From IMG/VR virus record IMGVR_UViG_3300044624_001054, positions 32,001-96,000 of that record: DNA of 64,000 bases. One strand, 5' to 3'. The notes beneath the pieces were generated by a model. It was not told where the DNA came from and did not search any database. It saw only the letters and a list, made by a program, of their open reading frames with translations. Source of the DNA: a virus. Shown piece by piece: positions 3,530-62,978 of this stretch; positions within the stretch are counted from its first letter, which is position 1; every line of letters begins with the position of its first letter. The position numbers were made by a program, and so were the translations under genes.

Positions 3530-3658
3530 ATGAAACACACATTCATTGTAACGGTAGAGTGCGAAGAAGCAGCAGACGCTTTGCTTGTAATGGGCGAGCG
3601 TTTGGACTATGATGAGGACTATGGATTCCCCTACTCAGTAGATTGGAAGTGGAAGTGA
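3530..3658 (+). CDS. 42-aa hypothetical protein (MKHTFIVT...)
   Basis: Hand-translated; fills the operon gap. Confidence 0.6.
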   Translation: MKHTFIVTVECEEAADALLVMGERLDYDEDYGFPYSVDWKWK

Positions 3659-4972: not shown

Positions 4973-5052
4973 GCCTCGCAGCCCCCAAGGTGGGGGAGCG
5001 GTCTGTAAAACCGTCGCCATTGGCACGCTTGGTTCGATTCCAAGGCGGGGCA
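4973..5052 (+). tRNA. tRNA-Tyr(GTA)
   Basis: Acceptor GCCTCGC/GCGGGGC, anticodon arm GCGGT-CT GTA AA-ACCGT, long variable arm, T-arm CTTGG-TTCGATT-CCAAG. Confidence 0.88.
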
Positions 5053-5080
5053 CTTGACAAATCGATTCGGGCGTGCCGGG

Positions 5081-20837: not shown

Positions 20838-20838
20838 G

Positions 20839-20910
20839 CTGGCCTGGTAGGATTCGAACCTACAACCCATCGGTTAACAGCCGATTGCGCTGCCATTGCG
20901 CCACAGACCA
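20839..20910 (-). tRNA. tRNA-Asn(GTT)
   Basis: Acceptor TGGTCTG/CAGGCCA, anticodon arm ATCGG-CT GTT AA-CCGAT, T loop GTTCGAATC. Confidence 0.93.
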
Positions 20911-20922
20911 CTACTTAAAACG

Positions 20923-20993
20923 CTGGAGAATCAGGGGTCGAACCTAAACTAAATGTTCCAAAGACATTTGTGCTGCCATTACACCATTCTCCA
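20923..20993 (-). tRNA. tRNA-Gln(TTG)
   Basis: Acceptor TGGAGAA/TTCTCCA, anticodon arm AATGT-CT TTG GA-ACATT, GTTCGAC. Confidence 0.88.
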
Positions 20994-45350: not shown

Positions 45351-46633
45351 GGATTTTCTAGTTCTCCTCCTGGCGTAGCGTTTTCCACTAGACTAATCTT
45401 AAAGTCATCAACGTTCTCTCCTACCAATTCGACATTAAATCTATAGTAAGCCTCTCCAGAATTATTATACCGTAGTTCAAATAAATCTATAAATTCTGCA
45501 TAGTTGTATTTGCTAACTCTGTCCCTATTTCCTTTATCTAAAATATCCTGTATTGCCCCCGATATTTCAGACATTCTTTCGTCTGCCATTCCAGAATTTA
45601 CAGTTCCAGGAGCGTTATAATCTATTATCTCAAAAAAAGACTGACCATCTTCTGTTAGAATTTCGTCATCTGGAATTGAATCAATACCGTCATAATTTAT
45701 TCCGCCTTCAATAAATTCTTTTGTAGAATTAATTAACTGTTTTGTTATTCTCTGGATCTCTTTGGTGATTTTTTTATCCAGATTAGGCATATAAATTCGT
45801 TCATCAGAACCTTTTGGAAGAGTGTAATCTGCTTTATTAAAGGCTGACTTTGGAACGTCTATTTTTTTTCCGCCGCCCTTTACTGTTGGATTTGGGCCTC
45901 CATGAGCAGGCTCGTCCACATCCGGCAGGCCGTCACCATCATCGTCCGTATCGTCTTCATTTAAAATTCCATCTCCGTCGATATCTGGATCTACATTGTC
46001 TGGTATTCCATCACCGTCAGAGTCTACTACAGGAGTCTGATGGCCACCTCCACTCCCCTCACCGCCGCCTGTACCACTACCGCCGCCACCACCTGGGCCT
46101 TTTACTCCTTTGAATAACTGCTTTAAATTCTTTTTTTCTGCATCATTTATTTTTCCATCTTTTACTGCATTAATTAACGCATCTTTTCTTTTATCACTAA
46201 GAGTTTGAAAGAATGCTAATTTTGAATCATCGGGTGGCCCGTTAAAAATATCTTTGACAACATCCCTGTCTTGTTTATTAGATAATTTTTCATATCCTGC
46301 TTGGAATGTTTCCCATTTAGTTTTTGGCTTGTTTCCTCCGCCACCTGGCTTTTGACCAGATCCTGGTTTTTGCCCAGAGCCTTGCTTTGTGCCGTCTGTC
46401 TTACCACCAGTCGGTGGCTTAAGCCCAGTTTCTTTTTTAACCTCTTGTCCTTTTTTATTCAAGGCGCTGTTAAGGATGGCATTAATTTTAGTTCTTTCAT
46501 CTTCTTTAAGATTGCCTTTATTATCTGCCATTTTTTTAGCACGGGAGCGTAAGTTTTCAGCCTCTTCTTGAGAAATAAACTTTTGACTTCTAGCATAATT
46601 AACTTTATCTAATATTTTTTGCAAGTCAGTCAT
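45347..46633 (-). CDS. Tail-region protein with Lys/Gly-rich region and DxDxDG Ca-binding-like repeats
   Basis: DSDGDGIPDNVDPDIDGDGILNEDDTDDDGDGLPD. Confidence 0.65.
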   Translation of the reverse strand: MTDLQKILDKVNYARSQKFISQEEAENLRSRAKKMADNKGNLKEDERTKINAILNSALNKKGQEVKKETGLKPPTGGKTDGTKQGSGQKPGSGQKPGGGGNKPKTKWETFQAGYEKLSNKQDRDVVKDIFNGPPDDSKLAFFQTLSDKRKDALINAVKDGKINDAEKKNLKQLFKGVKGPGGGGGSGTGGGEGSGGGHQTPVVDSDGDGIPDNVDPDIDGDGILNEDDTDDDGDGLPDVDEPAHGGPNPTVKGGGKKIDVPKSAFNKADYTLPKGSDERIYMPNLDKKITKEIQRITKQLINSTKEFIEGGINYDGIDSIPDDEILTEDGQSFFEIIDYNAPGTVNSGMADERMSEISGAIQDILDKGNRDRVSKYNYAEFIDLFELRYNNSGEAYYRFNVELVGENVDDFKISLVENATPGGELENP

Positions 46634-49600
46634 TATGCTTCACCAACCTCTACTATTGATACAGTCATCGATGGACCGCTTGGGCTTACTGAATGAGCGA
46701 TAGAAGATACAACAAATGTTTTATCGCCAAAGTTACTATTGCCCTCATAATACCCACGGGATTTATCGTATATCTTTACTTTATCTCCAAGTTCTATTAA
46801 GGGATTCTCAAAAATCTCCATAGTTAGTTTTATTCTTTGTCTACTGCAATACTTCAAGACCCATTGCATCATAGATCGGGCCTGAGATAATGATTGGATG
46901 TATTGGCTGTCCAGAGAAAATGTTTGATCTCCATAGATAGAAATATTTTTCTCTCTTTCCGTCTGCTTTAATTTATCCTCTTCACTACTTTCATATAAAT
47001 CTTTTGCTGTAACAGTCCCAGAACTTAATTCCTCTAAAGCAATTCCAACAATATATAGGGGAAGCGTCGCGTCAGCGCCTAGCCTCATGGCTCCGCCAGA
47101 AATATTGGCTACAACCAATTTAGCGCCGAAGGCATTAGGCTCATATTTTTTAATTAGATACTTAGGATTAATTTCTGAAATATCTAGAAGAGATGTTGTT
47201 AAAGCAGGGCCAGCAAATCTAATCTCATATTCTCTTACTTGTCTCGCAAGTCTAGCAAAATCATTGTAATAAAAGAGTGCTTCATTCCTGTTATCTTTAA
47301 ACAAGAAAGATTTATTTACAGAAATAGCCCCTTGATTTAACACTTTTTCAAATTGCTTCTTACCCTTAAAGTATGATCCTGGATCATCTTCAAATGGTTT
47401 TGCCGCAGCAGCAATGTATTCATATATGGCCTGAGAATCATTTCTTACAAACATACAAATATTTTTTGAATTAATACCTACTGACTCACCAATTTTTTCT
47501 ACATAACTACCGATCTTATTGTCTCCGTAGTAAATTGTATACTTCATAGCGTCTTTAAACTGTTCGATTTCAATGTCAAGTTCGAATACAGGGTCTAATG
47601 ATTGATTATCAGATTTTATAACTTGAACCGCAGTATCAGATACAGTTACCCCGCCAACGCTTGCTTTCATTAGAAGAGTCGGAGTGTATACAACACTATC
47701 CTTTTGTTTTTCTAATTTAATTCTATAGAATCTAAGGTTCTTAGTAACATCATCTTCTTTATAAAAACCCTTCCCCGCCGCCGCGTTTTCCACCTCTAGA
47801 TAGTATCCTTCACCTAGACTGTTTATGCCAAAACCTATGCCAGCAATTGAAGAGTTAGTGGATGATACTGTATAATTTTTATCTACTATCTTTCTAGGAG
47901 AGTACAGCCTCATTCTTGTAGATATAAAGTTTGGAGCAAATGGCAGAGTAATCTTCTGACCATATAATGCTTTTTCTCCCATAAGAGATACAAATGGGTC
48001 AAAGTCTTTTCCAGGAACATCATCGTTTACCTGATCATTTATTTTATTTAATTCTTTTACTACAGAATTAGATGGCGAGGCGCTTGTGACAGACTCAAGA
48101 ACATCTCTATCCGACTTGGGAGCAGTAGGCCCAGATATTTTAAGAAATCCAAGATAGGTATCTAGCGTATCGCTTGGAATAGTCCCCAAGAATTTTTTAG
48201 CAGACTTGTATTTAACCTTATCTGCAAAATTAAATTTCGTTGTAGCGTCTAGTTGACCTGGAACATTATAGTTTGCTTTTTCCCCAAGAACTAGTTTAAA
48301 TCTATTTGAAGGTTCTATTCCATCAGATTCTTCTACTACTGCATAATGTCTTGACACATCACTATTGAATTTACCTCTACCGTCGCCTATCACTTGATAC
48401 TCATATTTATCATTAACCTTGTTAATATTCTTAAATTTAACGTCTACTATTAAACCTCTAAATGATATTGAGTCACCTTTCCCTAAAGAAGACTTTAACT
48501 CAAAAAACTCTTCCTCAGTAAAAATTATCCTACTGCCATAAACTCCATTGGTGCCAGCGACATAAAATAATTTTCCACGATACTTGATATATTCATTATC
48601 TATAAGAACATATCCTTCATAATCTGGTATCGTAAAACCCTCATTTGTATCTAAATAAATTACTAAAGATCTTCTGTAGTTATCAGCAGTTTCGGTAGTA
48701 AACATTGCTCTAATTGCGTCTTCTTCATTAAATTTTGTATAAGTTTTTTCATCATACAAATCTTTTAACCTATATTCATATAGATCTTTAATGACATTAG
48801 CCGCCCCTAGAACAGATGAGTTATCGTCTGATGGTTGCCACATTATGGTTGTTCCATATTCAAAGTTAGAGAAGGCCAGGGAGTTCATAGGGAATTGATC
48901 TAACAATAACTGCTGATAAAGTTTTTTCTGCGTATCCTCAATGATATTAGACATTGGGGCTCTTTTAGGACCATAAAAATGATATGCAATATCTCCATCT
49001 GTTATGGGGTTAATTTTTTCTTCCGCTAAAGATACAACATTAGAAGTATAACTTGCAGTATATGGATATTCAGTCGCTGACGCAGAAACATTTTCATCCA
49101 TAATAAACCAGAAGTCTGTCCCAGGAGACTGTGCTGGAACTGGATGATCCTCAGAAACCCAGAACCCATAGTAATCACTATAGGTCCATTCTGTCTCTGC
49201 TGGAAGAGCGTCAGTATTACTACCGTAAAAGAACCAATTGTTGTTGTACCAGACATATTTATATGGATCTGGGTTTAAATTATTAATTTCTTGAACAGAG
49301 TCTTCTATTGCAGCATTCTCTGTTAATCTTTCTTTTGTGAGTACGTTTAATTTACCTGTAGCATCATAGTACATAGAACATTGTGTTGCCACCGATATCT
49401 GTTCAAATACTTCTGCCACCGTTTGCTCTCTTTTACAAAAGAAATTCTTAATTAAGGTATCTTCTTTATCGTTTTTACTGTAATCGGAGGACTTCCTAAA
49501 GTCTAGGCCAGTCACTCCAACATTATCTAATATCATTAAAATAATGGCTGATGTAGCAGCAAATGAAGATATCATAAAATCAGGGGCGGACAGTTGCCTG

Positions 49601-50865
49601 AGGTACTTCATACCATCTTCTAAAGAAACTGATACAGAATAATCTTCACCTATATTCCATTGATTTGAGTATAGAACTCCCATTGGAATATTGAATGTCT
49701 GATTTACGTCTGGTACATATACCTTTTGGTAGAAGTTAAATTTTACGTCTTCATTAAGCATTTTAGATGTACTTAAAATGCTAGCAAAAAGAAATTGTCC
49801 GTCCTCATTTGATAAAGATATATTACCAGTTCCAGATACGACCGTTCCGACTGGTAAACCAAAACTTGTAGAATCACCAATGGAAGAGGCTAAATTAAAA
49901 GACTCAACATAGTCACTAACGTCTGCCTCTAGTCGTGGAGATATTTCTATAAGTTCTAGGGGTGCATTTTTAAGAGTGCTGACCCATTTTTCTCCAGTTG
50001 GCTTTTGAGGAGGTAAAACTACTGGAACCATTGAGTCTACTCTAAATCTTATCCCACGAATCTTTTTAAAATGAGTTGGAGATGCTGCTACGAGTTCATC
50101 AAAATCGTCTAGTCTTGTAACTGTTTTAGACCAAGTTCCATTTCTTTGATAGTATAAATTAAGTTCTCCTGATATAAAGTCATCGTTGCTATTGGCAATA
50201 GCACTTGGATTTGATGATCTTGCTTCTGTTCTTGGTACATTATAAACTTGAGTCCATGTACTTCCGACTAAAATATCTATTGAAAAAGATGAAGGAATCA
50301 CAAGATGATTTTGCACCTTAATGACTATCTTATTGCACATAACATCTTGCTCGTAAACAACAAATGGGTTAACATCTAATATGATTCCAGCAATATTCGC
50401 TACCCCGACCATTTTTCTAGTTCCATCAAATCCTAAAAACTTTCCAGAATTATAGTAATCATATGTTCTGCCTTCTGATACTGGATAAAATCTAGCAGAA
50501 GCAGTAGAAAGTCTTGACACTCTAATATCAAATACGCTGTCTGAGAACACGGCCCCAGGATGTTTTTGAGCAAAAACAATTCCAGCGTTTGGTCTATTGG
50601 GTTTAAAAACAGATGATAGTTGTGAATAAAATTCTGATTTAGGATCTATTTTTGTTTCATCTTCATTAAATAAGATTCTGTTTTTTCCGTCGATAATGTT
50701 TGAACTTGTTGATGAATAATTAAATTCTTGACCATCAAGTTTATACAATCCATATTTTTCTATAGAAAAATATTTATTCATATTCCATTCAGCAATAACT
50801 TGATGCTCACTATTTATTCTATCGGCATTTTTATATAGGTCACGAATATCGCTATAGTTTAGCAT
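46633..50865 (-). CDS. Large minor tail (hub/central fibre) protein
   Basis: ~1410 aa, second gene after TMP; C-terminal NPLIELGDKV..FVVSSI pattern. Confidence 0.7.
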   Translation of the reverse strand: MLNYSDIRDLYKNADRINSEHQVIAEWNMNKYFSIEKYGLYKLDGQEFNYSSTSSNIIDGKNRILFNEDETKIDPKSEFYSQLSSVFKPNRPNAGIVFAQKHPGAVFSDSVFDIRVSRLSTASARFYPVSEGRTYDYYNSGKFLGFDGTRKMVGVANIAGIILDVNPFVVYEQDVMCNKIVIKVQNHLVIPSSFSIDILVGSTWTQVYNVPRTEARSSNPSAIANSNDDFISGELNLYYQRNGTWSKTVTRLDDFDELVAASPTHFKKIRGIRFRVDSMVPVVLPPQKPTGEKWVSTLKNAPLELIEISPRLEADVSDYVESFNLASSIGDSTSFGLPVGTVVSGTGNISLSNEDGQFLFASILSTSKMLNEDVKFNFYQKVYVPDVNQTFNIPMGVLYSNQWNIGEDYSVSVSLEDGMKYLRQLSAPDFMISSFAATSAIILMILDNVGVTGLDFRKSSDYSKNDKEDTLIKNFFCKREQTVAEVFEQISVATQCSMYYDATGKLNVLTKERLTENAAIEDSVQEINNLNPDPYKYVWYNNNWFFYGSNTDALPAETEWTYSDYYGFWVSEDHPVPAQSPGTDFWFIMDENVSASATEYPYTASYTSNVVSLAEEKINPITDGDIAYHFYGPKRAPMSNIIEDTQKKLYQQLLLDQFPMNSLAFSNFEYGTTIMWQPSDDNSSVLGAANVIKDLYEYRLKDLYDEKTYTKFNEEDAIRAMFTTETADNYRRSLVIYLDTNEGFTIPDYEGYVLIDNEYIKYRGKLFYVAGTNGVYGSRIIFTEEEFFELKSSLGKGDSISFRGLIVDVKFKNINKVNDKYEYQVIGDGRGKFNSDVSRHYAVVEESDGIEPSNRFKLVLGEKANYNVPGQLDATTKFNFADKVKYKSAKKFLGTIPSDTLDTYLGFLKISGPTAPKSDRDVLESVTSASPSNSVVKELNKINDQVNDDVPGKDFDPFVSLMGEKALYGQKITLPFAPNFISTRMRLYSPRKIVDKNYTVSSTNSSIAGIGFGINSLGEGYYLEVENAAAGKGFYKEDDVTKNLRFYRIKLEKQKDSVVYTPTLLMKASVGGVTVSDTAVQVIKSDNQSLDPVFELDIEIEQFKDAMKYTIYYGDNKIGSYVEKIGESVGINSKNICMFVRNDSQAIYEYIAAAAKPFEDDPGSYFKGKKQFEKVLNQGAISVNKSFLFKDNRNEALFYYNDFARLARQVREYEIRFAGPALTTSLLDISEINPKYLIKKYEPNAFGAKLVVANISGGAMRLGADATLPLYIVGIALEELSSGTVTAKDLYESSEEDKLKQTEREKNISIYGDQTFSLDSQYIQSLSQARSMMQWVLKYCSRQRIKLTMEIFENPLIELGDKVKIYDKSRGYYEGNSNFGDKTFVVSSIAHSVSPSGPSMTVSIVEVGEA

Positions 50866-51404
50866 TACACCTCCACCAAAGTCATGGAGATATCCCAAAG
50901 ATCGTGTGTCGCCCCTCGCTTTGTAATGACATAACTAAAATCCTCAAAGAACACATTATAGTATTCTAATGAGTACTTCAGCGGTACGGCTGAAGATGAT
51001 GTAGGGGTGTCATAAACCAAAGTGAGATAGAAACTGTCTGTATGATCTTTATGCCAGTCAAGCATCTGTTGAGAAGACGCCCAGCCTGTTGTAGTTCCGC
51101 CAAATCTAGTCTCAGATAATTCATCTCGTACGGAAGGAAGATCCTGCCATGACACAGAGAATGTTTTCTTATCTGCCACATGATAAGATCTCATTCTTCC
51201 ATTAATCATTCTTTTCTTATATTCAATTCTTTCTATTGCTATCTGTAACTCTGATCTACTGTCGTCAGTAAGGTATAGGAAGTCTGTATCTGCTGCGCCA
51301 AGATTCCATTGGCCTGAGGCAGCATTAACCACCACGGGAGCATTTTCTGAAAATATCATTAATGCTGGACGAGTCCATATTCTTTGTAATGTCGTAGTAG
51401 ACAT
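50865..51404 (-). CDS. Distal tail (Dit-like) protein
   Basis: Immediately after TMP; R..NG.MR, W..L, ends TLVEV. Confidence 0.6.
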   Translation of the reverse strand: MSTTTLQRIWTRPALMIFSENAPVVVNAASGQWNLGAADTDFLYLTDDSRSELQIAIERIEYKKRMINGRMRSYHVADKKTFSVSWQDLPSVRDELSETRFGGTTTGWASSQQMLDWHKDHTDSFYLTLVYDTPTSSSAVPLKYSLEYYNVFFEDFSYVITKRGATHDLWDISMTLVEV

Positions 51405-51407
51405 GTG

Positions 51408-54400
51408 TTAGATACTCCTACTATGGTTTCTTCTATTGTTTGCAGAGTTAATCATACTAATAACTTTATTAGCAATTGCGTTAGCACCCTTGCCACCAGC
51501 ACCATTTATAACAACCTTAACCTTGGTGTTATTTCTTGTTGAAGAGGAATTTCCAGCATAGTTAGTGTTATTAACTCCAACAGATGTATCTGCCATTGCT
51601 GGCATACTAAATGCTGGCATAGGTGCAGATCCAACCATTCCACCGTCTGCAAACATTCTAGGTTGCATGGATGAACCCTGGAATGGATTGAGTGACCCAG
51701 AGTTAATCTGATCCATAAATCCTTTACCATATTTTGCAACAGATGATGCTTTAACTACATATTCTCCATTAGAAAGCATTGCTGGAATCATATCAGATCT
51801 AGGTCCGCCAGGTCCAGAAATAAATCCTCCAGCCGCATAAGTATTGGGCCTATTGAATGTTCCATCTGGATTAATACCTAGACTAGCAATAGTTTGAGCA
51901 ACCTGTGATGGAGAAACTGATCTACTTTGACTAATTTGAGTATGCATCCAGTCTGCATTTCCATAATGATCTGTAATAAAACCGCCTAAACTTGTTGGAC
52001 CAAACCATTGAAGAACTTTATATTTATTCATCAAAGCGTTCATAGTTTTATACGGTTCTGGTGAATATGATTTCCATGGTGCAAGGGGCGATCTCTTACC
52101 TTTCCACCAATCTGTTACTGCTCGTTTTTCATCGTCGCTAACCCACGACCATCCAAAATATACACCCTCATCTGGTGCATTGATATCTACTGCCGTTCCA
52201 GATGGATGATTAGATTTACCTGGCTCGTCTCTTCCTTCTAGCCCACCTATATAACTAATAGGTCTAATCAATCTATTATAATCACTAGCAAAGGCAAGGA
52301 ATAATGGAAGAACATCTTTATTCATTGTTAAAGACATATTGGTTCCAGGAATTTTACCAGTTGCGGACTGGAACCCAGAATGCGGCCAATTATTAGGGCC
52401 ACCTTGAGCGCCAATAGTTGTAGTTGTTGGTCGTGCAGCGGTAGCAACACCTGTAGTTCCAACCCCAGGAAGGAATCCACCATTAGCAGGAGCATTAGGA
52501 TCATTTCTATTGATTAGCGATAGTTTCCCTCTAAGCCCCCTGTTTGGTAAAGTAAGTGCTTCTCCGCCGTCAGCAAACTTTTGAACTAGTCCACCATTAG
52601 CATAGCCTCTTACTCCTTCGACCATTGCCTTTAGACGTTCTGATAAAACAAATTTTAAGAATTTTGGATTAACTAATCTATGCTGTGGAGCCTGAAGTGC
52701 AAATTTTGCAACAATAGGATCTATAAGACCACCTATCCCGCCTGCATCTCCAAGCATTTCTTCTAACCTAAGAACTTGTTGCTTATATACAGAACCAGTT
52801 ACTTTTCCAAAACCAAATGAACTTCCGTGCCTCGGGTCAAGAATTTTTAATGGGTCGGTAGGATCATTGGGTATTGGCCTGCCGTCATGAGTTTGAAAAA
52901 CATTGCTTCCAAAATCTATTCTATATGGAATAAGTCTTCCTGGTACGCCAAGAGGAATGGATTCATCTTCTTTAATAACATAATTATGTATATGTGAATC
53001 TCTTAATCCAAATAGTGTATCTACAGCCTTTCCTATTCCACCTTCTCTTGCAAGCCTTGATTGCATACTGCTATCTAATTGTGATTCTACAAATGTTAAT
53101 CCGTCCGCCCAATCGCGGTTTGGATTCTTTCCAAAAAATTCTGAAACATGTTTAACATTATCTAACATTGTGCTTGAAGTTACAAGTTCTCCAGGGGGAA
53201 AATAGTTTAGTCCCATCGCAGCAAGTTCTGGTGTGAGGTTCTTCCCAGGGAAGTATCTTTCTTTTGCCCCAATATTAAGAAGGTTTACATCAGGTACATT
53301 CATATTAAGGGCCTTATATGCATTTGCAATTAAAGACTCTAAATAAACAGATTTTGCTCCAGATTCAGAATCATACGGACCTTTAACATATCTACGAACA
53401 CCGTCCTTACCAATAACTAAGCCTCCAGGACTAATTCCCCCCTGACTATTAGGGACTGATGTTCCAAAAACATTATCTAGTTGATTTTCGTCAACAGCCA
53501 TACCTTTTACCCACTCAAGGAGGAGCATATCCCTGGAGGGTACGGCTGCGGTTGGTTTTGATGATGGTGGTAGAATTCTGGGGGCACCCATTCCTAGAGA
53601 AAATCTTAGATCGCTAGTAATTTGTGATATCGCAATAGGCTTAGGTGGAATTAAACCAGATTGCAAAGGTTGCATTACGCTAGAAGTCGCTGCCCTTCTA
53701 GAGGCTGACCTTCCTAATAATGATGCACCCTTAAACCCTATACCTACCCCAGGAATAACTCCAAGAATTTCCATAAGTGCAGCGGCAGATGCAATATCCT
53801 TTCCTTGCTGGTTTGATTGATCAATGCTAGACAATCCATAGAATGGAAGTAGTGAGGCTGGGTCTGCAGCAATAGAAGAAGCCATAGATCCCAAGGTTGA
53901 GAAAATGCCTTGCTGATCAATGCTGTTCTTTATTCCCTGGAACATTAAGTTAAAGCCAGAGCCTGCTCTTCCGCCACCGCCTGCACCAGGCTGCATATAT
54001 CCGCCACGAGTATATGGGCTATTTTGCTCTCTCCTCAATCTCTTCTTTCCATATACATTTCCATATGCCTGCTGGCTAGCACCACTATAACCTGTTGCAG
54101 ACATTGGTGTTCCGCCAGTATATTGCGGCTTAACCTTAACTCCACCAAGATATTTGTTTCCAGCAGCCGCTGTTTCAGCGCGGTCAGCAGATACATAGCC
54201 TCCCGCGTAAAATCCTCGCACAAAACCACCATTAGCAAAACTAGGAATATTGTAACCATATTTCTCCGCCATTTCTGACGCTTTACGATATGCTAATTCT
54301 GCTTCTGGCTTAGGTGTACTGGGGTGGAAAGCCTTTTGTAGTAGCGCTGAAATTCTAGCAGCCTTTGTTGGATTGGCCGCAGCACCAGTTTTAAGAGTTG

Positions 54401-57400
54401 GCCCAGTAAACTGATCTCTTGACGGTCTGGGAGGAGGCTCTCTTCTGGGAGGAGGTTCATTACGAGGAGGTGGCTCTCTGCGTGGTGGCGGTTGCCTGCG
54501 TGGTGGCGGTTCATACCGTGGGCCACTATTGCGTGGAGGAACAAATCCAGGTGGAGGGGGGTTATCAAATGGATTGGGGGCGGTTCTTTCTCCTGGCTTA
54601 AAGAACGGATTTTGGTTACGACTAGCCCAAGCCACTTCATCTGCGGTAGCCATTGGTGGCGCTCCATATTGCAACATCCAACTCTGACGCTCAGAAGTGC
54701 TCCAAGAACTCCATTCTTTTGCAAATCCTTCTGGATATTTTGTTGGGAAATCTTTTATATCCACAAAGTTCGGGTCGTCGCGTAATGTAAACCTATTTGT
54801 ATTTTCTTTAGTTCCTGGACCTGATCTAAATAGTTTATCCTTTGCTTCAGAGAGTCTGGCTCTATCGGCCCTAGGAATTCCTCCTCGGGCACCAAATGGA
54901 AACACACCCATGGCTATTAGACCTCTTGTTAGAGCATCGCTCTCAACATAGGACTGACCACCGATAAATCTTCCCAACGCTGTTGTATCTTGCGTATCTA
55001 TTCCAAAGGCTCTTGCGGGAACCCTGAATGGAGCAAAGAATGAATCAAATATGGTGGCCCCAGCGGTTCGCAATACATTTACCAAGCCCTTAACACCAGT
55101 AGGATCTTCTGGGTTATACCCAATAGATTCAAGATTTATAAGGTCGCGGCGACGGGCTTTAGGTTTATTGTATCCTGTGGATGAGGTTGGAGTGCCACCA
55201 AAATATGTTGGGGGTGGCTTATTATAACCAGTAATAGAAGTTGGGGTGCCGCCATAATATGTCGGTCTTTGTGATGCCTGATATTCTTCGCGGTCGGCAG
55301 AGATATAGCCACCGTAGGCAAACTTTCCGGCATTGATATTATCCATCATATCCTTGCCGTATTTACTTACACTAGAGGCTTGAATTACATATTCACCGTT
55401 TGATAGATAGGCTGGAATTACATCAGACTTCGGTCCACCAGGACCAGTTACTTTTCCGCCGCCCTCTAGCATTACACGACCGTTTTGGATATATCCACCA
55501 GTTGCTGCTCTATTTGGATCTAATGCAGCGGCATCGTAATCATCTGTAACACCATCTCCGTCAGTATCTTTAGTTGTTCCACCTACATCTCCATTAATTG
55601 TTACACTATCAGCAGTAACCGTCATATCTCTAACTTGTTGTGCAGTATCACCAACCCCAGTATCGCCAACATTTTCTGAATTATACATCCATGTTGGATC
55701 TCCTCTTAATCCAAGGTCTTGAAGAACAGCCTCTACTCCCATGGGAACGCCCTTTGGACCGCGAGGCGCTGCAAGGGCCCCAGCCTGCCTGACAGCCTCT
55801 CCAAGAGTTACACCACCACGATAATAAATTTCTTCAATTCTTAGTCTTAGCATTTCTTTTCTTGCTTCTACATAGGGCTTACTCTTTAATTCGGCATAGT
55901 CCTTAGAATATCTTTCTTCGGCTGCTTTAGCATTATCTCGATAGTCTTGCTCCATAGTTTTGATGCCTTCTATTTCTTGGTCTTTATCTTCTAAGGCATT
56001 TTCTCTAGCAGTATTTGCTCTTTCAATTTGTTTGTCATAGAATTCCATTCGATCATCGTGGGCATCTTGTTCTATTTCCATGAGATCTTGAACACCCTTA
56101 ATACGATCTTCCATCATTTGTTCATACTCATCTTGCTCTTTCTGCTTTTGCTCACGAATTTCATCTATGGCTTCTAGTTCAAGATCTCTTCTTTCTTCAA
56201 TCCCAGAGATCATTTCATCATATGAAAACTCTTGGGCGTCCGCAGACATTTGTTCGCGTTCCTGGAGGAATCCAAAAACATCTCCAGATGCAAGTTTTTC
56301 AAGTGCGCCGAAAGCAGTTTTTCTTTGTTGTGCGTAGAATGACTCTGCTTTTTGATTCTTTTCAAGAGATTCAATGTAGGCATCAGAAGATTTTTCAATG
56401 GCCTCACGGCGGTCATCTAGTTGCTGCATCTGCTCATCAAAGTCTCTTCTTCTTACATCCATCTCCTCCTGCATGCCCTCAATGGAGTTCTGACGGCCTT
56501 CCTGTTCCACCTCAAATGCGTCTTGTGCAGATTCTTTTAGACCTTCATATAACTCAATTCTTTCATCCATCGCATCTGAATAATTTTCGAATCTAAGGTT
56601 TGCAGCATCTCTTTGTTCCTGGGCAAACTGATCAATCATCCCAAAGTAACTTTCTTCTGCTTCTATTCTAAGAAGTTTAGTCGCATCTGCTAGTGATTTA
56701 GCACTTACTGCCGCTCGGCCAAGAGCAATGTCAAATTCGCCAGCATCATTGATGGCCTTATCTAAAGAAATTCCGGCAATAGCCATTTGAGTTGCAACTA
56801 CAGTTTCTTCTGCGGTGTCTATTGTTTGTAGAACTGTTTCCCATTCTGCTCCATAGGTATCCCTCAGGTAATCTGATAGCCTTCCTATTGCAGCAGTCCT
56901 ATCATCTGGATCTTCTAGATTATTAATTATTTCTGTTAATTTTTCAAATCCTTCTATGGCAGCGGTAGGGTCTTGCTGGTATGCCATAACTAATGAGTCT
57001 ATTACTCCAGATAGCATTTCTGGATTTACTGTTAATAGATCTTCTATTCTATTTCCTATGGCATCTAATTCATCGCCTATTGCCTTTAATCTATTTTCTT
57101 CTTCTCTACTTGTTGGAGCAATAGGTACATACCCTGGCCCATCTGGAGTTTCTGTTGGTCCTGCTGGACCAATCCTATTTTGTTCTGCACGAGTTTCTCC
57201 AGAAAGAATTTTTCTTCTTTCTTCTTCTAGGGCGGCACGTTCTTTTTCTAAAGTTTGTAAAATTGTTAAACCAGAATTTCCTATTTGTGTTTCTGCTGGA
57301 GAGAATTGACCAACAACGTTATTAACTGCATCCTTAATCGTTAAGGATTCGTCAAGTAAACCCTGGCCTACGGCCTCAGTAAAAGCCTTTCCTCCCGCTA

Positions 57401-60400
57401 GCCCTGCCTCTGCAGCAATTGCCTCTATTGCTGCTTTAGCATTTTCTGCACTCATTCCAGAAATAATCATATTGCTGTATGCAATAGATAATTCTTGAGC
57501 GCCTGCTCCTGCAGACAAAGATTTAATTTGCTCTATTAATGGGGCATAATCTTGGCTTACTGCTTCTCTAAGTGCTTTATCTATTTCCTGTAAATCTTCA
57601 GAGACATTGGACAACCTATTCTTTTCAAGAATGTCGGATACACTCATAATTGTCTCGCCAAAATATTCTGCACTCTTTACTGGATCATTAAATGCTGCTA
57701 TAGCCCTTTGCCTAGCCTCTTCTGCTGCATTTCTATACATCATAAACCCAGTAATAGCAGCAGTTATACTAATTCCTGCAGCAATGCCAACAGGACCGCC
57801 AGCCACACTAAGGAGTCTCCCTGCACCTAATAATGCTGCACCGCCCATCTGTCCGCCGCGTGCAGCAGCCATAGCCCCACCCATTTGAGCAGCCCTTCCA
57901 GCCGCAGCAGAGCCAGCCATTTTACCACCAAGAGATTTCATTCCTAAGAAATTAGTAAACGTTCCTTTTCCTAGCCCCATATTCATCATCATGGTAGCGG
58001 TCATCAAGGCGGTGGTAAATAGGCCAAGTTTTGCAGCGGCGTCAGAGGACGCCCCGCCCATCATTGAGATGCTAGAGGTAACCATAGATAAGGCAAACAT
58101 TGCGTTCATTGCGTTCATGCCCCGCATACCGCTCTGTGCGGCATCTTTTGCATTACCTATTGCAACTGATGGACCAGTAGTTGGAGCAGTACCTCTTTGT
58201 AATAAATAGGACTCTCTTCTAGCAGCAGCAAGTTGTTTTCTTTCATCCAAAGTCATATTTCCAAATCTAGATGATTTTTCTGATACTGCCGAATACGGGG
58301 AAACTCCACCCATAAAGTATCCCATTGATCCGCTTGGACCTACTCCAAATGAAGAAGCGGCGCGTGCTACGTTTGCTCTTGATAATGCTTCGTCTGAACT
58401 TGCCTTAATACGGGCTGTTTCTGCTGCACGCTCTTCAGCACGTTGTCTTATAGTTACAATTCCAGAAAGTTTTTTCTCTAGGGCTAATCTATGTGCTTCT
58501 TCTTTAGCAAGTGCTTCTAGTGTTTCTGTTCTTTTCTTACCAGCAACTGCTCCATCTTTATGAACCCATAGCCCTGTTTCAAGGCTCTTTATCCAATTAG
58601 CAAGAGTTATATTCCCTTGTTTTTGAATTGCATCTGTTCTTAATTGGCTGTCTGTAATCATACCTTGTACAATTACTTCTTTTTGAAGGGCTTTTGTTAC
58701 TACAGATCTTGCTGCAGCCTCATGGTGCATTGCCTCTCTTATTCTAGTAGCAGGGCCTAAAGATTCTGCTCCTGGACCTATGGCCCTTAATGACCCTAGT
58801 GGCCCCATTGCACCACTTACTGATCTTGTTCCAGAGACTATTTCATTGCCAAGTTCTTTTCCAGCGGGTCTTCCGTCTACCTTGCTGGCTCCTTGAATAA
58901 ATCCATCAGATAGATTCTTACCAACTCTATCAGCCTCTAGTGACGGGGATGCTTGCTTAGAATATTTTTTAACACTATTAAGAACTTTAGTTGGAATTTC
59001 ACTAGCGCTAACGCCAAGTTTTACAAAGTATTCTTCTAATGCAATTATTTGTGTCGCGAGTTTTTGGCGAGCCTTAAGCAATATTTCATTGCCTGGATCT
59101 GCTTGCAATCTTCTTTCAATGGCACCGTACTGCTGCAATTGAACTCTTTGTGCGGCCCTCAAGTCCGGTGTAGTGGCTCCAGTTAACCCTGTTGTTCTTG
59201 CATCTAATAAAGTTCTGTCTAATATTGCTCTAGTTTCTGCAGAAAAACCTTTCTTTGTTGCTAAAACTTCCAACGCCTTTTCATATGCATTCATATCTTT
59301 AGTATGAATCATGATTCCGCCAGTCAATGAGGTCATAATTCTATCTATAGTTTTAGCATTAGCCCCTGTTTCTTTCAGGGCTGCCTCAAGTTTTCCCCGT
59401 AAAGAACTTGACAATCCAAAAAGATTTGCCATTTGATTTTCAGAGTCAAGGATGGTCTTCCATAGTTGTGGGTGCCAAGCGATAGCCTGACTATCCAGCC
59501 TTAAATTCTTCATGAATCCGCCAGAACCTATAAGGTGACCTCTTGCTTCGCCTGGGGAAAGGTTACCAAATGCTTTAGAAACTGATGCTGGACGACTTCT
59601 AACATATTCCCCGTCTTTTCTTCTTGCTCTAACTGAAGCCCTTCCTTTTCCTGTACCCTCTACTGCGGCAGAATATCTTTGCAGCCATTTTTCATCTTCT
59701 GGGGTGCCCTTTTGGAATCCTGGTAAAGTTCCGCGATTCATTTCCATTAAGACGGGGGCATATTTTTGTGTGGCAGCACGATTTACTACAAATTCACCAG
59801 GCTCAAGCATGGCGGGTATTTTATCTCCACGACCAGATCCTGGAACAGAGCCGCCTTTATTAAAGGTTAAAGGCAGACCATACTGCCAGGGAGCCATATC
59901 TCCAGTTTGCCTATTTTTTTCAACCTCTGCCGCTTCTTTTTTAGCAATTGCTGCAGCAGTTGGAGGCTTCTTTACCTCCGGCGCTATATCTTTGTGGAAC
60001 CTATATACTGCCGCCCAATCTATCTTTTCGGCGTCTTTAAGATCCTGAACAAGACGCATATACATTTGTCTTTCTGTTTTATCTAAGTATGGAAGTTTAT
60101 CAATGGCTCCGCGAACCTTTACAGATGCTTGAGCAATAGCATTTTTAAATCCTTCAACATACTCTTTTTCTGTCATGGATTTTGCAAGGACTGCTGATTC
60201 TTCGGCAAACCACTTTCTAGCGCCGCCCTTTTTCATGAGGAAGTTTATTTCTGCCTGTTCTTGAACTGATGGCAAAGGGCCGCCAATTACTCTTGGCTGA
60301 GAGGCTTTGTTTGCAACAAATGCTGCCCCAACGTCAGTAACAACATTTCCATAAAGATTATCTGGCTGAAGGTCTTTATCCCTTCTCATAATAGATGCAA

Positions 60401-62978
60401 TAGATTGATTGAAGAAATTATCTTTATCTATGACTCCTGTGCTAGAAGCAAATTTTGCATCATACGGTGATCGTACTGCAAATACAATATCTCCTGTAAC
60501 AGGATGCTTAATTTTTACAAGTTCTTGTATTGGGGTCTTAAGCCCAAAGATATCTCTTGTCAATTGTGAGCCACGAATTTCAGCAAGCGCTGAATCTGCT
60601 GAGTCATGAGTCTTAATTACATATTGTTTTCCACCTTGCTCATACACTCCATTAATACCAGGAATGGCAGAACTTTTACCACCAATAGAGGATACTCTTT
60701 TACCCATATCAGAAACGGGCAGGCTAGCAAATCTTCCTGTTGTTGCTTCTTGATTTACTCTGCTTAGGGTTCCTCTTAATTCTTTTGCTCTCTGTACGTC
60801 TTGATATTTTCTTGCCATTCCAAGGAAGACTGCACCTACTGAAAATCCTGGCAATTGACCTTTATTCATGGCAGAAATTACTGGCCAATATTTAGCGGTA
60901 GCCTCCTTAGTAACAACTGATTCTCCTGGTTCTAGTAAGGCGGGAATTATATCTCCACCACCATATCCACCAGGAACACGCTCTGGAGATGTAGATCCCT
61001 TCTGTCTTCTTATTGGAACTTGTCCCCGTGGGCCAGGAATGGCCCCAGGAACAAATAATGCTGGGTTAGCAGTAGTTAATCTTCTAAGAGATGCTTCATA
61101 GGAAGAAAGAACTCCTGTAAGTCTAAGGAGAGCCTTTTCCTGAGTATCAAATGATGTTGTAAGTCTGTCTACACCAAGTTTTGCAGCCATAATATCTGCA
61201 GTAAGTAATTCGAACTTTTCTGTTTTAATTCCTGCGATTCTTACGCCGATCCTAGTCAGCATCAAGCCAAATTTAAGGCCATTAGCAAAAAGGTTTCCAA
61301 ACAGGCCCACCAACATAATTATTGGACCAGCCAACGCTGCAATGGCTACACTATACTTAGCAAAATCCTTTACTGGCCCAGGGAGTGCTTGGAAGAATGA
61401 TGTAAACATTTTTACACCCTTACCAATAAATTCAAATATTGGAATAAGTGTTTCAGTAAGTACCTCGCCTATTGGCATTATTGAATTTTTTAATTCCTCT
61501 AATGTTCTTTGGAATTTGACAGCAGTTGATTCAGTTAGTGTTCTAATTTCTCCATTAGCAATGGCTGCTAACTCAGCAGAACTCTTAGATGCAAGTTCTA
61601 CAACTTGTTGTGTCTGAGATCCAGCCCTACCAATATTATCAAACAGGGCTGTAATTCTTGCAAACTGATATTTACCAAATATTTGCTCAATGATACGGGA
61701 TCTTGAAAAACTGTCTAGACCCGCTAAAGCATCTTTCATTGCATAAATAGTGGGCATTAGTTGTCCGCGATTTGCTTCTACTATCCCAACAAGATCTACC
61801 CCAAAACCTTTAGCAACTGCAGAGGCTTGTTTTGTTGGATTAATGAGTGATGCAAGACCAGATTTTAATGCATTGGCTGCTTCTGCCGCTGGAATGCCAC
61901 CTTCACGCATAGCAACAAGAAGTTCTGCAAGGTCTCTAATGTCTCCACCTAGACTTCTAACAACTGGACCAACCTTAGGGATAGCAGTAGATAAATCTTG
62001 TAGAGTGGCAGATGTTGAATTTTCTACAGCATTCAAGAAGTTGATTGATTCTGCTAATTCGTTAGTATTAAGTCTAAACGCTGACTGTAGGGCTAAAGTT
62101 GCCTTCATAGCCTCTTGTCTATCTACTTCACCGAGTACAGCCAATCTTGTAGTTTGTTGAACAGCCCCCATTAACTGCTCGCCTTCTTGACCTGTAGCAG
62201 CAATGTCTGCGGCTAGAGCAGCAGTTTCTTTAGCAGCAATACCATATGTTCTTGAAATTTCATATGCTAATTCTTTAACATCATCCCTCATTCTTGCGGT
62301 AGCAGCACTCATTGATCCGCCTAACTCTGATCCGTATACTTTTTGGAACCTAGTTAATTCTTTATCAAGATCTCTAAACTGTTTAGACGCGACGGCGGTA
62401 AAAAGCATCAAGGGTACTGTGAAGCCAACCATCAATTGACGACCAGCCCATTGGGTATTCTTACCCCAGTTAAGCATTGCAGTTGCGCCGCCATTCACCA
62501 GTTGATTAAATACTGAGAATCTTTGTGATGCTAGTGCAGCAGCATTACTTGCTGCATTAATATTCTGAGGCGTCATCATCATTGCCTGTCCGCCGCCAAC
62601 GGGTACAGCGATGGACTGTTGATATCTTACTTGCTGTTCAGCAAGCCTACGCATCAAACTATTTTCACGAGTATACCCAGTAATCGCCTCGCGGAAATAC
62701 TGACGCATAGTAAGGCGATTTGCAGCAAGTTGCCTGCCAAAAGTTTCTACAGCGCTTGTTGCTTTAATAGTTGAAGTTGTAAATCCGCCAGTCTGCCCTA
62801 CTCCTGCCGCAAATGTTGCAGCAAGACTTCTTTGGGCAGTAAGGGCGGATTTATCAAGAGTGTTAAAGGCAGCAGTTAAAGCGCCAATCTGAGTGGTGAG
62901 GGCTTTGATCTGTGCCTGGGCAGCAGAAAGATTTGCGTTATAAGTAATAGTAGAGTGAATGTTAGCCAAATTCAACAC
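51408..62978 (-). CDS. Tape measure protein (3856 aa) with accessory enzyme domains
   Basis: TMP core near 61640-62380, Ala/Gly-rich and coiled-coil segments; follows the tail chaperones; start may be TTG at 62969. Confidence 0.9.
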   Translation of the reverse strand: MLNLANIHSTITYNANLSAAQAQIKALTTQIGALTAAFNTLDKSALTAQRSLAATFAAGVGQTGGFTTSTIKATSAVETFGRQLAANRLTMRQYFREAITGYTRENSLMRRLAEQQVRYQQSIAVPVGGGQAMMMTPQNINAASNAAALASQRFSVFNQLVNGGATAMLNWGKNTQWAGRQLMVGFTVPLMLFTAVASKQFRDLDKELTRFQKVYGSELGGSMSAATARMRDDVKELAYEISRTYGIAAKETAALAADIAATGQEGEQLMGAVQQTTRLAVLGEVDRQEAMKATLALQSAFRLNTNELAESINFLNAVENSTSATLQDLSTAIPKVGPVVRSLGGDIRDLAELLVAMREGGIPAAEAANALKSGLASLINPTKQASAVAKGFGVDLVGIVEANRGQLMPTIYAMKDALAGLDSFSRSRIIEQIFGKYQFARITALFDNIGRAGSQTQQVVELASKSSAELAAIANGEIRTLTESTAVKFQRTLEELKNSIMPIGEVLTETLIPIFEFIGKGVKMFTSFFQALPGPVKDFAKYSVAIAALAGPIIMLVGLFGNLFANGLKFGLMLTRIGVRIAGIKTEKFELLTADIMAAKLGVDRLTTSFDTQEKALLRLTGVLSSYEASLRRLTTANPALFVPGAIPGPRGQVPIRRQKGSTSPERVPGGYGGGDIIPALLEPGESVVTKEATAKYWPVISAMNKGQLPGFSVGAVFLGMARKYQDVQRAKELRGTLSRVNQEATTGRFASLPVSDMGKRVSSIGGKSSAIPGINGVYEQGGKQYVIKTHDSADSALAEIRGSQLTRDIFGLKTPIQELVKIKHPVTGDIVFAVRSPYDAKFASSTGVIDKDNFFNQSIASIMRRDKDLQPDNLYGNVVTDVGAAFVANKASQPRVIGGPLPSVQEQAEINFLMKKGGARKWFAEESAVLAKSMTEKEYVEGFKNAIAQASVKVRGAIDKLPYLDKTERQMYMRLVQDLKDAEKIDWAAVYRFHKDIAPEVKKPPTAAAIAKKEAAEVEKNRQTGDMAPWQYGLPLTFNKGGSVPGSGRGDKIPAMLEPGEFVVNRAATQKYAPVLMEMNRGTLPGFQKGTPEDEKWLQRYSAAVEGTGKGRASVRARRKDGEYVRSRPASVSKAFGNLSPGEARGHLIGSGGFMKNLRLDSQAIAWHPQLWKTILDSENQMANLFGLSSSLRGKLEAALKETGANAKTIDRIMTSLTGGIMIHTKDMNAYEKALEVLATKKGFSAETRAILDRTLLDARTTGLTGATTPDLRAAQRVQLQQYGAIERRLQADPGNEILLKARQKLATQIIALEEYFVKLGVSASEIPTKVLNSVKKYSKQASPSLEADRVGKNLSDGFIQGASKVDGRPAGKELGNEIVSGTRSVSGAMGPLGSLRAIGPGAESLGPATRIREAMHHEAAARSVVTKALQKEVIVQGMITDSQLRTDAIQKQGNITLANWIKSLETGLWVHKDGAVAGKKRTETLEALAKEEAHRLALEKKLSGIVTIRQRAEERAAETARIKASSDEALSRANVARAASSFGVGPSGSMGYFMGGVSPYSAVSEKSSRFGNMTLDERKQLAAARRESYLLQRGTAPTTGPSVAIGNAKDAAQSGMRGMNAMNAMFALSMVTSSISMMGGASSDAAAKLGLFTTALMTATMMMNMGLGKGTFTNFLGMKSLGGKMAGSAAAGRAAQMGGAMAAARGGQMGGAALLGAGRLLSVAGGPVGIAAGISITAAITGFMMYRNAAEEARQRAIAAFNDPVKSAEYFGETIMSVSDILEKNRLSNVSEDLQEIDKALREAVSQDYAPLIEQIKSLSAGAGAQELSIAYSNMIISGMSAENAKAAIEAIAAEAGLAGGKAFTEAVGQGLLDESLTIKDAVNNVVGQFSPAETQIGNSGLTILQTLEKERAALEEERRKILSGETRAEQNRIGPAGPTETPDGPGYVPIAPTSREEENRLKAIGDELDAIGNRIEDLLTVNPEMLSGVIDSLVMAYQQDPTAAIEGFEKLTEIINNLEDPDDRTAAIGRLSDYLRDTYGAEWETVLQTIDTAEETVVATQMAIAGISLDKAINDAGEFDIALGRAAVSAKSLADATKLLRIEAEESYFGMIDQFAQEQRDAANLRFENYSDAMDERIELYEGLKESAQDAFEVEQEGRQNSIEGMQEEMDVRRRDFDEQMQQLDDRREAIEKSSDAYIESLEKNQKAESFYAQQRKTAFGALEKLASGDVFGFLQEREQMSADAQEFSYDEMISGIEERRDLELEAIDEIREQKQKEQDEYEQMMEDRIKGVQDLMEIEQDAHDDRMEFYDKQIERANTARENALEDKDQEIEGIKTMEQDYRDNAKAAEERYSKDYAELKSKPYVEARKEMLRLRIEEIYYRGGVTLGEAVRQAGALAAPRGPKGVPMGVEAVLQDLGLRGDPTWMYNSENVGDTGVGDTAQQVRDMTVTADSVTINGDVGGTTKDTDGDGVTDDYDAAALDPNRAATGGYIQNGRVMLEGGGKVTGPGGPKSDVIPAYLSNGEYVIQASSVSKYGKDMMDNINAGKFAYGGYISADREEYQASQRPTYYGGTPTSITGYNKPPPTYFGGTPTSSTGYNKPKARRRDLINLESIGYNPEDPTGVKGLVNVLRTAGATIFDSFFAPFRVPARAFGIDTQDTTALGRFIGGQSYVESDALTRGLIAMGVFPFGARGGIPRADRARLSEAKDKLFRSGPGTKENTNRFTLRDDPNFVDIKDFPTKYPEGFAKEWSSWSTSERQSWMLQYGAPPMATADEVAWASRNQNPFFKPGERTAPNPFDNPPPPGFVPPRNSGPRYEPPPRRQPPPRREPPPRNEPPPRREPPPRPSRDQFTGPTLKTGAAANPTKAARISALLQKAFHPSTPKPEAELAYRKASEMAEKYGYNIPSFANGGFVRGFYAGGYVSADRAETAAAGNKYLGGVKVKPQYTGGTPMSATGYSGASQQAYGNVYGKKRLRREQNSPYTRGGYMQPGAGGGGRAGSGFNLMFQGIKNSIDQQGIFSTLGSMASSIAADPASLLPFYGLSSIDQSNQQGKDIASAAALMEILGVIPGVGIGFKGASLLGRSASRRAATSSVMQPLQSGLIPPKPIAISQITSDLRFSLGMGAPRILPPSSKPTAAVPSRDMLLLEWVKGMAVDENQLDNVFGTSVPNSQGGISPGGLVIGKDGVRRYVKGPYDSESGAKSVYLESLIANAYKALNMNVPDVNLLNIGAKERYFPGKNLTPELAAMGLNYFPPGELVTSSTMLDNVKHVSEFFGKNPNRDWADGLTFVESQLDSSMQSRLAREGGIGKAVDTLFGLRDSHIHNYVIKEDESIPLGVPGRLIPYRIDFGSNVFQTHDGRPIPNDPTDPLKILDPRHGSSFGFGKVTGSVYKQQVLRLEEMLGDAGGIGGLIDPIVAKFALQAPQHRLVNPKFLKFVLSERLKAMVEGVRGYANGGLVQKFADGGEALTLPNRGLRGKLSLINRNDPNAPANGGFLPGVGTTGVATAARPTTTTIGAQGGPNNWPHSGFQSATGKIPGTNMSLTMNKDVLPLFLAFASDYNRLIRPISYIGGLEGRDEPGKSNHPSGTAVDINAPDEGVYFGWSWVSDDEKRAVTDWWKGKRSPLAPWKSYSPEPYKTMNALMNKYKVLQWFGPTSLGGFITDHYGNADWMHTQISQSRSVSPSQVAQTIASLGINPDGTFNRPNTYAAGGFISGPGGPRSDMIPAMLSNGEYVVKASSVAKYGKGFMDQINSGSLNPFQGSSMQPRMFADGGMVGSAPMPAFSMPAMADTSVGVNNTNYAGNSSSTRNNTKVKVVINGAGGKGANAIANKVISMINSANNRRNHSRSI

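Follow-up and report, generated by a model that had tools for sequence, protein, structure and literature searches.

How could the tail tape measure protein (TMP) of a phage come to carry two segments that resemble kinases, and what would they do there? This question is raised by a stretch of 64,000 nucleotides (positions 32,001 to 96,000 of virus record IMGVR_UViG_3300044624_001054; hereafter the window), which is part of a 106.6-kb viral contig judged to be 88% complete. In the window, a single uninterrupted frame of 3856 codons on the minus strand, read from the open reading frame (ORF) list and its translation, encodes a TMP of 3856 amino acids, and an original prediction had placed two HipA/PI3-4K-like kinase domains in it. 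These segments are called D1 and D2 here; D1 is clearly, and D2 probably, of an atypical kinase type, and both are optional modules. The explanation considered reasonably likely is that the TMP of an uncultured long-tailed phage carries them as accessory kinases that would be delivered together with the TMP.

51408..62978, minus strand: TMP gene (ORF list, PF10145, PHROG TMP families)

The predicted identity of the carrier, which the original prediction also named as a TMP, is well founded. The Pfam family PF10145 (PhageMin_Tail) matches residues 237-435 with an E-value of 4.6e-29 (102 bits, the cut-off being 33), PHROG TMP families cover the first 640 residues as well as the C-terminus (best phrog_10030, E 1e-115), and the best cultured matches are annotated TMPs. 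Hydrophobic segments and Glu/Arg-rich helical stretches of the coiled-coil ruler kind are visible in the translation, and the gene stands in a tail gene setting, with minor tail protein genes downstream and small genes upstream. Since the N-terminal 640 residues share 32-35% identity with the TMPs of Gordonia phages and of Streptomyces phages of 130 kb, the phage is placed among relatives of actinobacterial phages; these two groups are also the nearest to it in their tail genes.

Conserved residues and predicted fold of D1

The extent of D1 and its motifs are as follows.

59877..60776, minus strand: module D1, residues 735-1034, span by hidden Markov model (HMM)
60642-60659, minus strand: GINGVY, residues 774-779
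Residues 786-789, minus strand: YVIK
60357-60386, minus strand: RRDKDLQPDN, residues 865-874
Residues 881-884, minus strand: TDVG

All motifs first proposed for D1 and D2 were recovered at the positions given here and, for D2, further below; the proposed domain extents were right in location but too short, both modules being larger by HMM. The motifs go beyond chance: in 15 relatives of D1, which come from viral contigs and show 37-81% identity, the Gly loop at 772-779 (including G774 and G777), K789, E800, D867, D869, N874 and D882 are invariant, and the ratio of nonsynonymous to synonymous substitution rates (dN/dS) of D1 against its closest viral relative is 0.11; the Gly, Lys, Glu and Asp residues of D2 listed below are invariant in 26 relatives.

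D1 was modelled with AlphaFold2 from a 9-sequence alignment. The model, with a predicted local distance difference test (pLDDT) of 76.9 and a predicted template modelling score (pTM) of 0.75, combines a sheet in the N-lobe with a long helix C and a C-lobe made of helices. Foldseek against the PDB places CtkA first (E 4e-5), followed by HipA, HipT, LepB, PI4KII-alpha and ordinary protein kinases; the structural search of the isolated segments that had been suggested as a check gave these matches for D1 and, from a poor model, non-significant rows for D2. VIA-align gives CotH a Z of 12.3 (root-mean-square deviation 3.9 over 218 residues), CtkA 11.8, MavQ 10.4, PI4KII-alpha 10.1, LepB 9.8 and HipA 9.5. 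A search of 48,161 solved chains, independent of Foldseek, returns CotH at Z 12.3, CtkA at 11.0, MavQ at 10.3, PI4KII-alpha at 10.0 and HipA at 9.7, with kinase-like folds in 49 of the best 50 rows listed; against 14 kinase-like representatives, Z runs from 12.3 down to 8.0, with PI4KIII-beta at 8.0; class I/III PI3K score 6-8.

The modelled D1 thus has the same two-lobed fold as the CotH kinase of Bacillus cereus (PDB 5jd9/5jda), CtkA, HipA/HipT, PI4KII, MavQ, LepB and Fam20, with the Gly loop, Lys, Glu, Asp...Asn and Asp-x-Gly in the same order as in this group. It differs from the group in that identity is 7-16% (12% to CotH, the best structural neighbour), no Pfam model of these families matches, and D1 sits, as a cassette of 300 residues, within a virion protein. 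D1 is accordingly described, on its model, as an atypical protein-kinase-like fold of the CotH / CtkA-HipA / PI4KII / MavQ group with an intact-looking active site, and by sequence model it would be assigned to no named family. In Escherichia coli HipA, the catalytic loop is D-x-H-x-K-N, a pattern carried by neither D1 nor D2; the loop of D1, R-R-D-K-D-L-Q-P-D-N, differs from both the HipA and the PI3K pattern, and D1 is without the N-terminal subdomain of HipA and without an antitoxin partner. The D-x-H-x-x-N signature from which the kinase assignment had started does not hold up, since D1 reads D-L-Q-P-D-N, and the His of the D2 loop, D-S-H-I-H-N, is not conserved among D2 relatives, being Lys in relative L004, while the wider D2 family reads NWDAVGxxxDN.

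Protein and lipid substrates are not separable by this fold, the neighbours being protein kinases (CotH, CtkA, HipA, Fam20) as well as lipid kinases (MavQ, PI4KII, LepB). It is somewhat doubtful that D1 and D2 are delivered kinases with lipid or envelope small-molecule substrates, such as phosphatidylinositol-type lipids or cell-wall precursors, instead of defence or translation proteins, and act where the TMP enters the membrane. The lipid kinases among the D1 neighbours (MavQ Z 10.3, PI4KII-alpha 10.0, LepB 9.8, PI4KIII-beta 8.0), the hydrophobic segments and cell-wall peptidase of the TMP, and nearest cultured relatives that infect actinobacteria, whose membranes contain phosphatidylinositol-type lipids, would suit such a role. 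However, the top neighbours are protein kinases, and fold similarity of Z 10-12 does not tell substrates apart.

Residue pattern, kinship and carriers of D2

The second module lies nearer the C-terminus.

52608..53513, minus strand: module D2, residues 3156-3457, HMM span
53421-53444, minus strand: QGGISPGG, the Gly loop, residues 3179-3186
Residues 3196-3200, minus strand: RYVKG
52980-53009, minus strand: GLRDSHIHNY, residues 3324-3333
Residues 3353-3357, minus strand: RIDFG
Residues 3447-3452, minus strand: ERLKAM helix

The order and spacing of these motifs are kinase-like: a Gly loop, a strand with Lys, a helix with Glu, a helix followed by Asp...Asn, a strand and Asp-x-Gly. Conservation was examined in two sets, of 12 and 26 relatives; G3181, G3185, G3186, K3199, E3214, D3327 and D3355 are invariant among the 26, which reach down to 15% identity, and N3332 is nearly so. 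The dN/dS of D2 is 0.46, at very low divergence. With the single D2 sequence, phmmer over 1.84 billion representatives found 7 relatives, all long and most above 3000 amino acids; an alignment search of viral contigs reached distant relatives, and a profile search then added 37 shorter proteins. The consensus of this superfamily is G-S-N-P-G-G ... D-G-V-K-R-Y-V-K-F-Y ... E ... N-W-D-A-V-G-x-x-x-D-N ... R-I-D-x-G-G, and tblastn of D1 and D2 against 50,697 GenBank phages gave no match. Because both modules keep the Gly-rich loop, the beta-3 Lys, the helix-C Glu, the Asp...Asn pair and the DFG-like Asp, both would probably bind ATP-Mg and transfer phosphate.

BLASTP of D1 against D2 found nothing, and local hhalign with the 9-sequence profiles of both gave a weak N-lobe match only. 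With the D1 family compared to the D2 superfamily, hhalign reports a probability of 71% (E 3.7e-5), and with the larger alignment 89% (E 2.2e-6), the Gly loop, Lys and Glu being in register; alignments containing whole TMPs were uninformative, as the TMPs matched each other. A structural bridge points in the same direction. Foldseek of the D1 model against BFVD matches Gordonia phage proteins GodonK gp67 (1479 aa, E 3e-4) and Sixama gp73 (774 aa, E 1e-2), as well as phage "ADP-ribosyltransferase", MuF-fusion and portal-fusion proteins and viral proteins annotated PI3K/PI4K; the D1 HMM does not match GodonK gp67 or Sixama gp73, and the only kinase-like region by sequence in these two is a D2-superfamily domain (HMM E 1e-32 and 7e-38). 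The bridge from D1 over the Gordonia proteins to the D2 superfamily is suggestive, and D2 is taken, from the profile comparison, to be a very distant relative of D1. From residue conservation, the profile link to D1 and this bridge, a kinase fold of D2 is quite likely.

The wider D2 family is located, in long proteins of viral contigs, between Phage_Mu_F and ADP-ribosyltransferase (ART) domains, sometimes together with NUDIX. In cultured Gordonia phages, a D2-type domain is found in the gene directly after the portal gene, and a large ADP-ribosyltransferase gene comes next. The D2-type domain is unannotated in the following four carriers.

L036 4180-8619: Gordonia phage GodonK gp67, compact D2-type member at residues 101-284
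L037 2614-4938: Gordonia phage Sixama gp73
L034 5662-7866: Gordonia phage Mareelih gp77
L035 1087-4728: Pseudomonas phage Jeremy, 1213-aa "ADP-ribosyltransferase"

Pseudomonas phage Dolphis is a further cultivable carrier of the domain. That the D2-type domain is simply part of the accompanying ADP-ribosyltransferase was rejected, as it forms a separate block between MuF and ART and also occurs alone in proteins of about 250 amino acids.

The MuF-D2-ART layout is that of head-packaged polyvalent proteins. It has been reported that polyvalent proteins of phages and conjugative elements consist of swappable enzyme domains, are thought to be injected with the DNA, and include predicted kinases (Iyer, Burroughs, Anand, de Souza and Aravind 2017, PMC5512222); the kinase group of that work is without a C-terminal subdomain and comes from Verrucomicrobia, Chlamydia and Bacteroidetes phages, and tape measure proteins are not mentioned there. 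Like the TMP of the window, polyvalent proteins are large multi-domain virion proteins, and the D2 family itself occurs in such MuF-ART-NUDIX architectures; they differ in the carrier, which here is the TMP. An architecture of the polyvalent type is nevertheless found, with D1, D2, DUF2786 and an M15-like peptidase in one TMP and with relatives that vary their modules.

Linker peptides, cassette layout and gene neighbourhood

The TMP is loaded with swappable globular modules that are joined by repeated short linker peptides, and D1 and D2 behave as cassettes in it. The linker core, D-x-IPA-x-L-x-x-GE-x-V, was located by regular expression and in the architecture table in four copies, starting at TMP residues 676, 1052, 2519 and 3729.

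60813..60986, minus strand: linker ("anchor") copy 1, core residues 676-688; upstream edge of the D1 cassette
59694..59861, minus strand: linker copy 2, core residues 1052-1064; downstream edge of the D1 cassette, counterpart of the first linker in P0003, the closest TMP
55299..55466, minus strand: linker copy 3, core residues 2519-2531; end of the coiled-coil ruler part
51669..51836, minus strand: linker copy 4, core residues 3729-3741; precedes the C-terminal tail-tip part
54210..55151, minus strand: optional Pro-rich/DUF2786 module, residues 2610-2923; PF10979 E 5e-7, absent from P0003 by BLASTP map

Other modules are flanked by shorter (F/Y)-A-x-G-G junctions. The Pro-rich/DUF2786 module contains five R-x-E-P-P-P repeats and is bounded by the near-duplicate junctions A-Y-G-G-Y-I-S-A-D-R-E and Y-A-G-G-Y-V-S-A-D-R-A-E.

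The survey of cargo variation among related TMPs, which had also been suggested as a check, bears out the modular layout. P0003, of 3002 amino acids, contains D2 at 94% identity and is without D1; because its first linker and the module after it correspond to linker 2 of the window TMP and the module following that linker, the unit of linker 1 plus D1, about 376 residues, is an insertion bordered by a duplicated linker. Conversely, P0009 contains the D1 cassette and is without D2, and D1 and D2 occur together in 0 of about 19 relatives compared. Relatives bear NlpC/P60, amidase and lysozyme-like modules instead.

The module after linker 2 (58386-59693, minus strand, residues ~1095-1530) has the pattern G-H-x-x-G ... 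W-H-x-x-x-W ... E-N-Q; it is conserved in the relatives P0003 and P0008 and has no Pfam match. Two metagenome proteins, P0012 and P0013 (1297 and 1222 aa), contain a D1-type domain with no recognisable TMP core and no Pfam match, so D1 rides on at least one further carrier.

Some TMPs, those of mycobacteriophages among them, contain cell-wall hydrolase modules that act on peptidoglycan, and a module of this kind is also predicted between D2 and the last linker.

52119..52364, minus strand: M15/VanY-like (LAS) peptidoglycan peptidase motif, residues ~3539-3620; PHROG endolysin E 1e-4

It reads S-N-H-P-S-G-T-A-V-D, of the SxHxxGxAxD type, and its matches to PF13539 and PF02557 are weak and below the cut-offs. 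Mycobacteriophage Douge gp16 (PDB 8zdo) has the same TMP core and the same linker peptide, there in two copies (E 1.5e-23), and its structure resolves only the last 42 residues (PMC13033339).

Directly downstream of the TMP gene are a small gene of 179 amino acids and a minor tail protein gene of 1421 amino acids (46633-50898, minus strand; phrog_10359, E 3e-65), of which only the first 530 residues match known tail families. Elsewhere in the window there are five tRNA genes (Glu, Asp, Tyr, Asn, Gln), at 567-640, 2028-2101 and 4973-5053 on the plus strand and at 20838-20910 and 20922-20993 on the minus strand, and the G+C content of the first 4 kb, 0.46-0.53, is above that of the remainder (0.35-0.46).

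Proposed delivery with the tape measure and its meaning

In long non-contractile tails, the TMP occupies the tube and leaves it for the envelope before the DNA does. In the proposed mechanism, the TMP trimer would be metastable in the tail tube and would precede the DNA into the envelope; D1 and D2 would take up their fold, or regain it, at the membrane or past it, and would then phosphorylate host molecules before any phage gene expression. That they are delivered kinases is argued from the analogy with Thermus phage P23-45 and from the company kept by the D2 family (MuF, ART, NUDIX). It has been reported that gp96 of P23-45 is a TMP fused to a virion RNA polymerase which transcribes pre-early genes (Chaban et al. 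2024, PMC10770324), and a TMP-fused enzyme can therefore work after delivery. Like the TMP of the window, gp96 is giant and carries an enzyme that is unrelated to tail building, the gp96 enzyme acting at the start of infection; it differs in that its polymerase is N-terminal and of demonstrated function, whereas here two putative kinase cassettes are inserted, one after the TMP core and one near the C-terminus.

Several results weigh against this reading. Three globular domains of 300 residues per TMP trimer cannot fit folded in the lumen of the tail tube, and they would therefore have to be unfolded, displaced or removed; catalysis by D1 and D2, their presence in the mature virion, their delivery, also as far as the cytoplasm, and their substrates are inferred. 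In the D1 model, residues 138-160 of the segment, covering the catalytic loop and activation segment, are of low confidence. The membership in HipA or PI3/4K families that had been proposed fails at the sequence level, since no Pfam kinase model matches D1 or D2 at E <= 10: D1 alone matches no family at this threshold, whether HipA_C/HipA_2, PF00454, the CotH family PF08757 or any other, and neither D2 alone nor the 26 superfamily members matched any family; scans of the whole TMP and of every alignment member likewise gave no kinase family. Searches of PDB sequences with phmmer and hmmsearch, using D1, D2 and their profiles, found no kinase, only TMP and cell-wall hydrolase matches. The hhalign match between the two modules covers the N-lobe only, about 74 columns, and an alignment forced through the C-lobe gave no significant extension. 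The Foldseek bridge came without target ranges, so that the matched part of the Gordonia proteins is assumed to be the D2-type domain. Finally, the AlphaFold2 model of D2, also from 9 sequences, is unusable (pLDDT 37), so that the evidence for its kinase fold is indirect. Of the two kinase domains originally claimed, D1 stands, by its model, the structural searches and its catalytic-type residues, but D2 is probable only.

Another explanation is that only D1 has a kinase fold and that D2 has a different one, for example that of a nucleotide-binding or transferase domain accompanying ADP-ribosyltransferases, its kinase-like residue pattern having arisen by coincidence or convergence. The failed D2 model, the want of any Pfam or PDB sequence match and the short hhalign link all favour it, and the wide structural search with that model lists CotH at rank 21 (Z 4.4) amid helical-hairpin noise; VIA-align of the model gives Z <= 4.4. 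The Foldseek, VIA-align and wide searches with so poor a model are not taken as evidence against a kinase fold. However, the motifs come in the order and at the spacing of a kinase, with all key residues except the nearly invariant N3332 unchanged across the 26 sequences; hhalign (E 2e-6) aligns the D2 Gly loop, Lys and Glu with their D1 counterparts; the Foldseek rows of the poor model, all non-significant, are nearly all kinases of this kind (PIKK such as ATM, the PI3K VPS34, CtkA, Fam20, HipA); the D1 model matches Gordonia proteins bearing the D2 family; and in a language-model atlas the LepB_N, PI3_PI4_kinase and HipA_2 clusters are among the neighbours of D1 and of D2. A different fold for D2 is therefore regarded as unlikely.

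It is about equally improbable that the modules have a real kinase fold but serve the phage itself, in tail assembly, length control, TMP folding or release or the envelope channel, or which are trimmed in maturation and stay in the producing cell. Processing of TMPs is known, as is their action as an envelope channel (Douge, PMC13033339; discussion of P23-45, PMC10770324), and folded domains are too big for the tube lumen. Against this, D1 and D2 are dispensable, as close TMPs lack one or the other, and this pattern suits accessory cargo more than a central part in assembly; the D2 family keeps company with domains that are typical of injected conflict proteins (ADP-ribosyltransferase, NUDIX, MuF); and in P23-45 the RNA polymerase fused to the TMP does its work once delivered (PMC10770324).

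Starting from accessory kinases delivered with the TMP, a wider proposal can be made, which is possible but is held tentatively: the TMP may be a second, tail-borne platform for effector delivery, parallel to the head-borne MuF proteins, with the D2-type family on both and cassettes exchanged by linker recombination. Two active kinases would then be fired into the envelope or cytoplasm ahead of the DNA, disabling defence or rewiring the membrane.

TMPs with enzymatic modules and polyvalent virion proteins are already known kinds; in the literature on TMP kinases, HipA, CotH and virion-injected kinases, no description of a kinase module in a TMP was found. What the window adds is a TMP with a second kinase-type module unlike the first, the link to MuF/ART polyvalent proteins, and a clean cassette insertion at a duplicated linker. 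Two unannotated kinase-type families are thereby defined in phage virion proteins, and the D2-type family, present and unnamed in cultivable Gordonia and Pseudomonas phages, is directly testable there. The duplicated linkers show how TMPs gain and lose cargo, and for oversized TMPs from metagenomes protein length is not simply readable as tail length. Host takeover or counter-defence before expression has so far been documented for enzymes packaged in the head and for a single RNA polymerase fused to a TMP, but for no kinase. Should the modules be delivered and active, phages with long tails could phosphorylate host proteins or lipids before any transcription.

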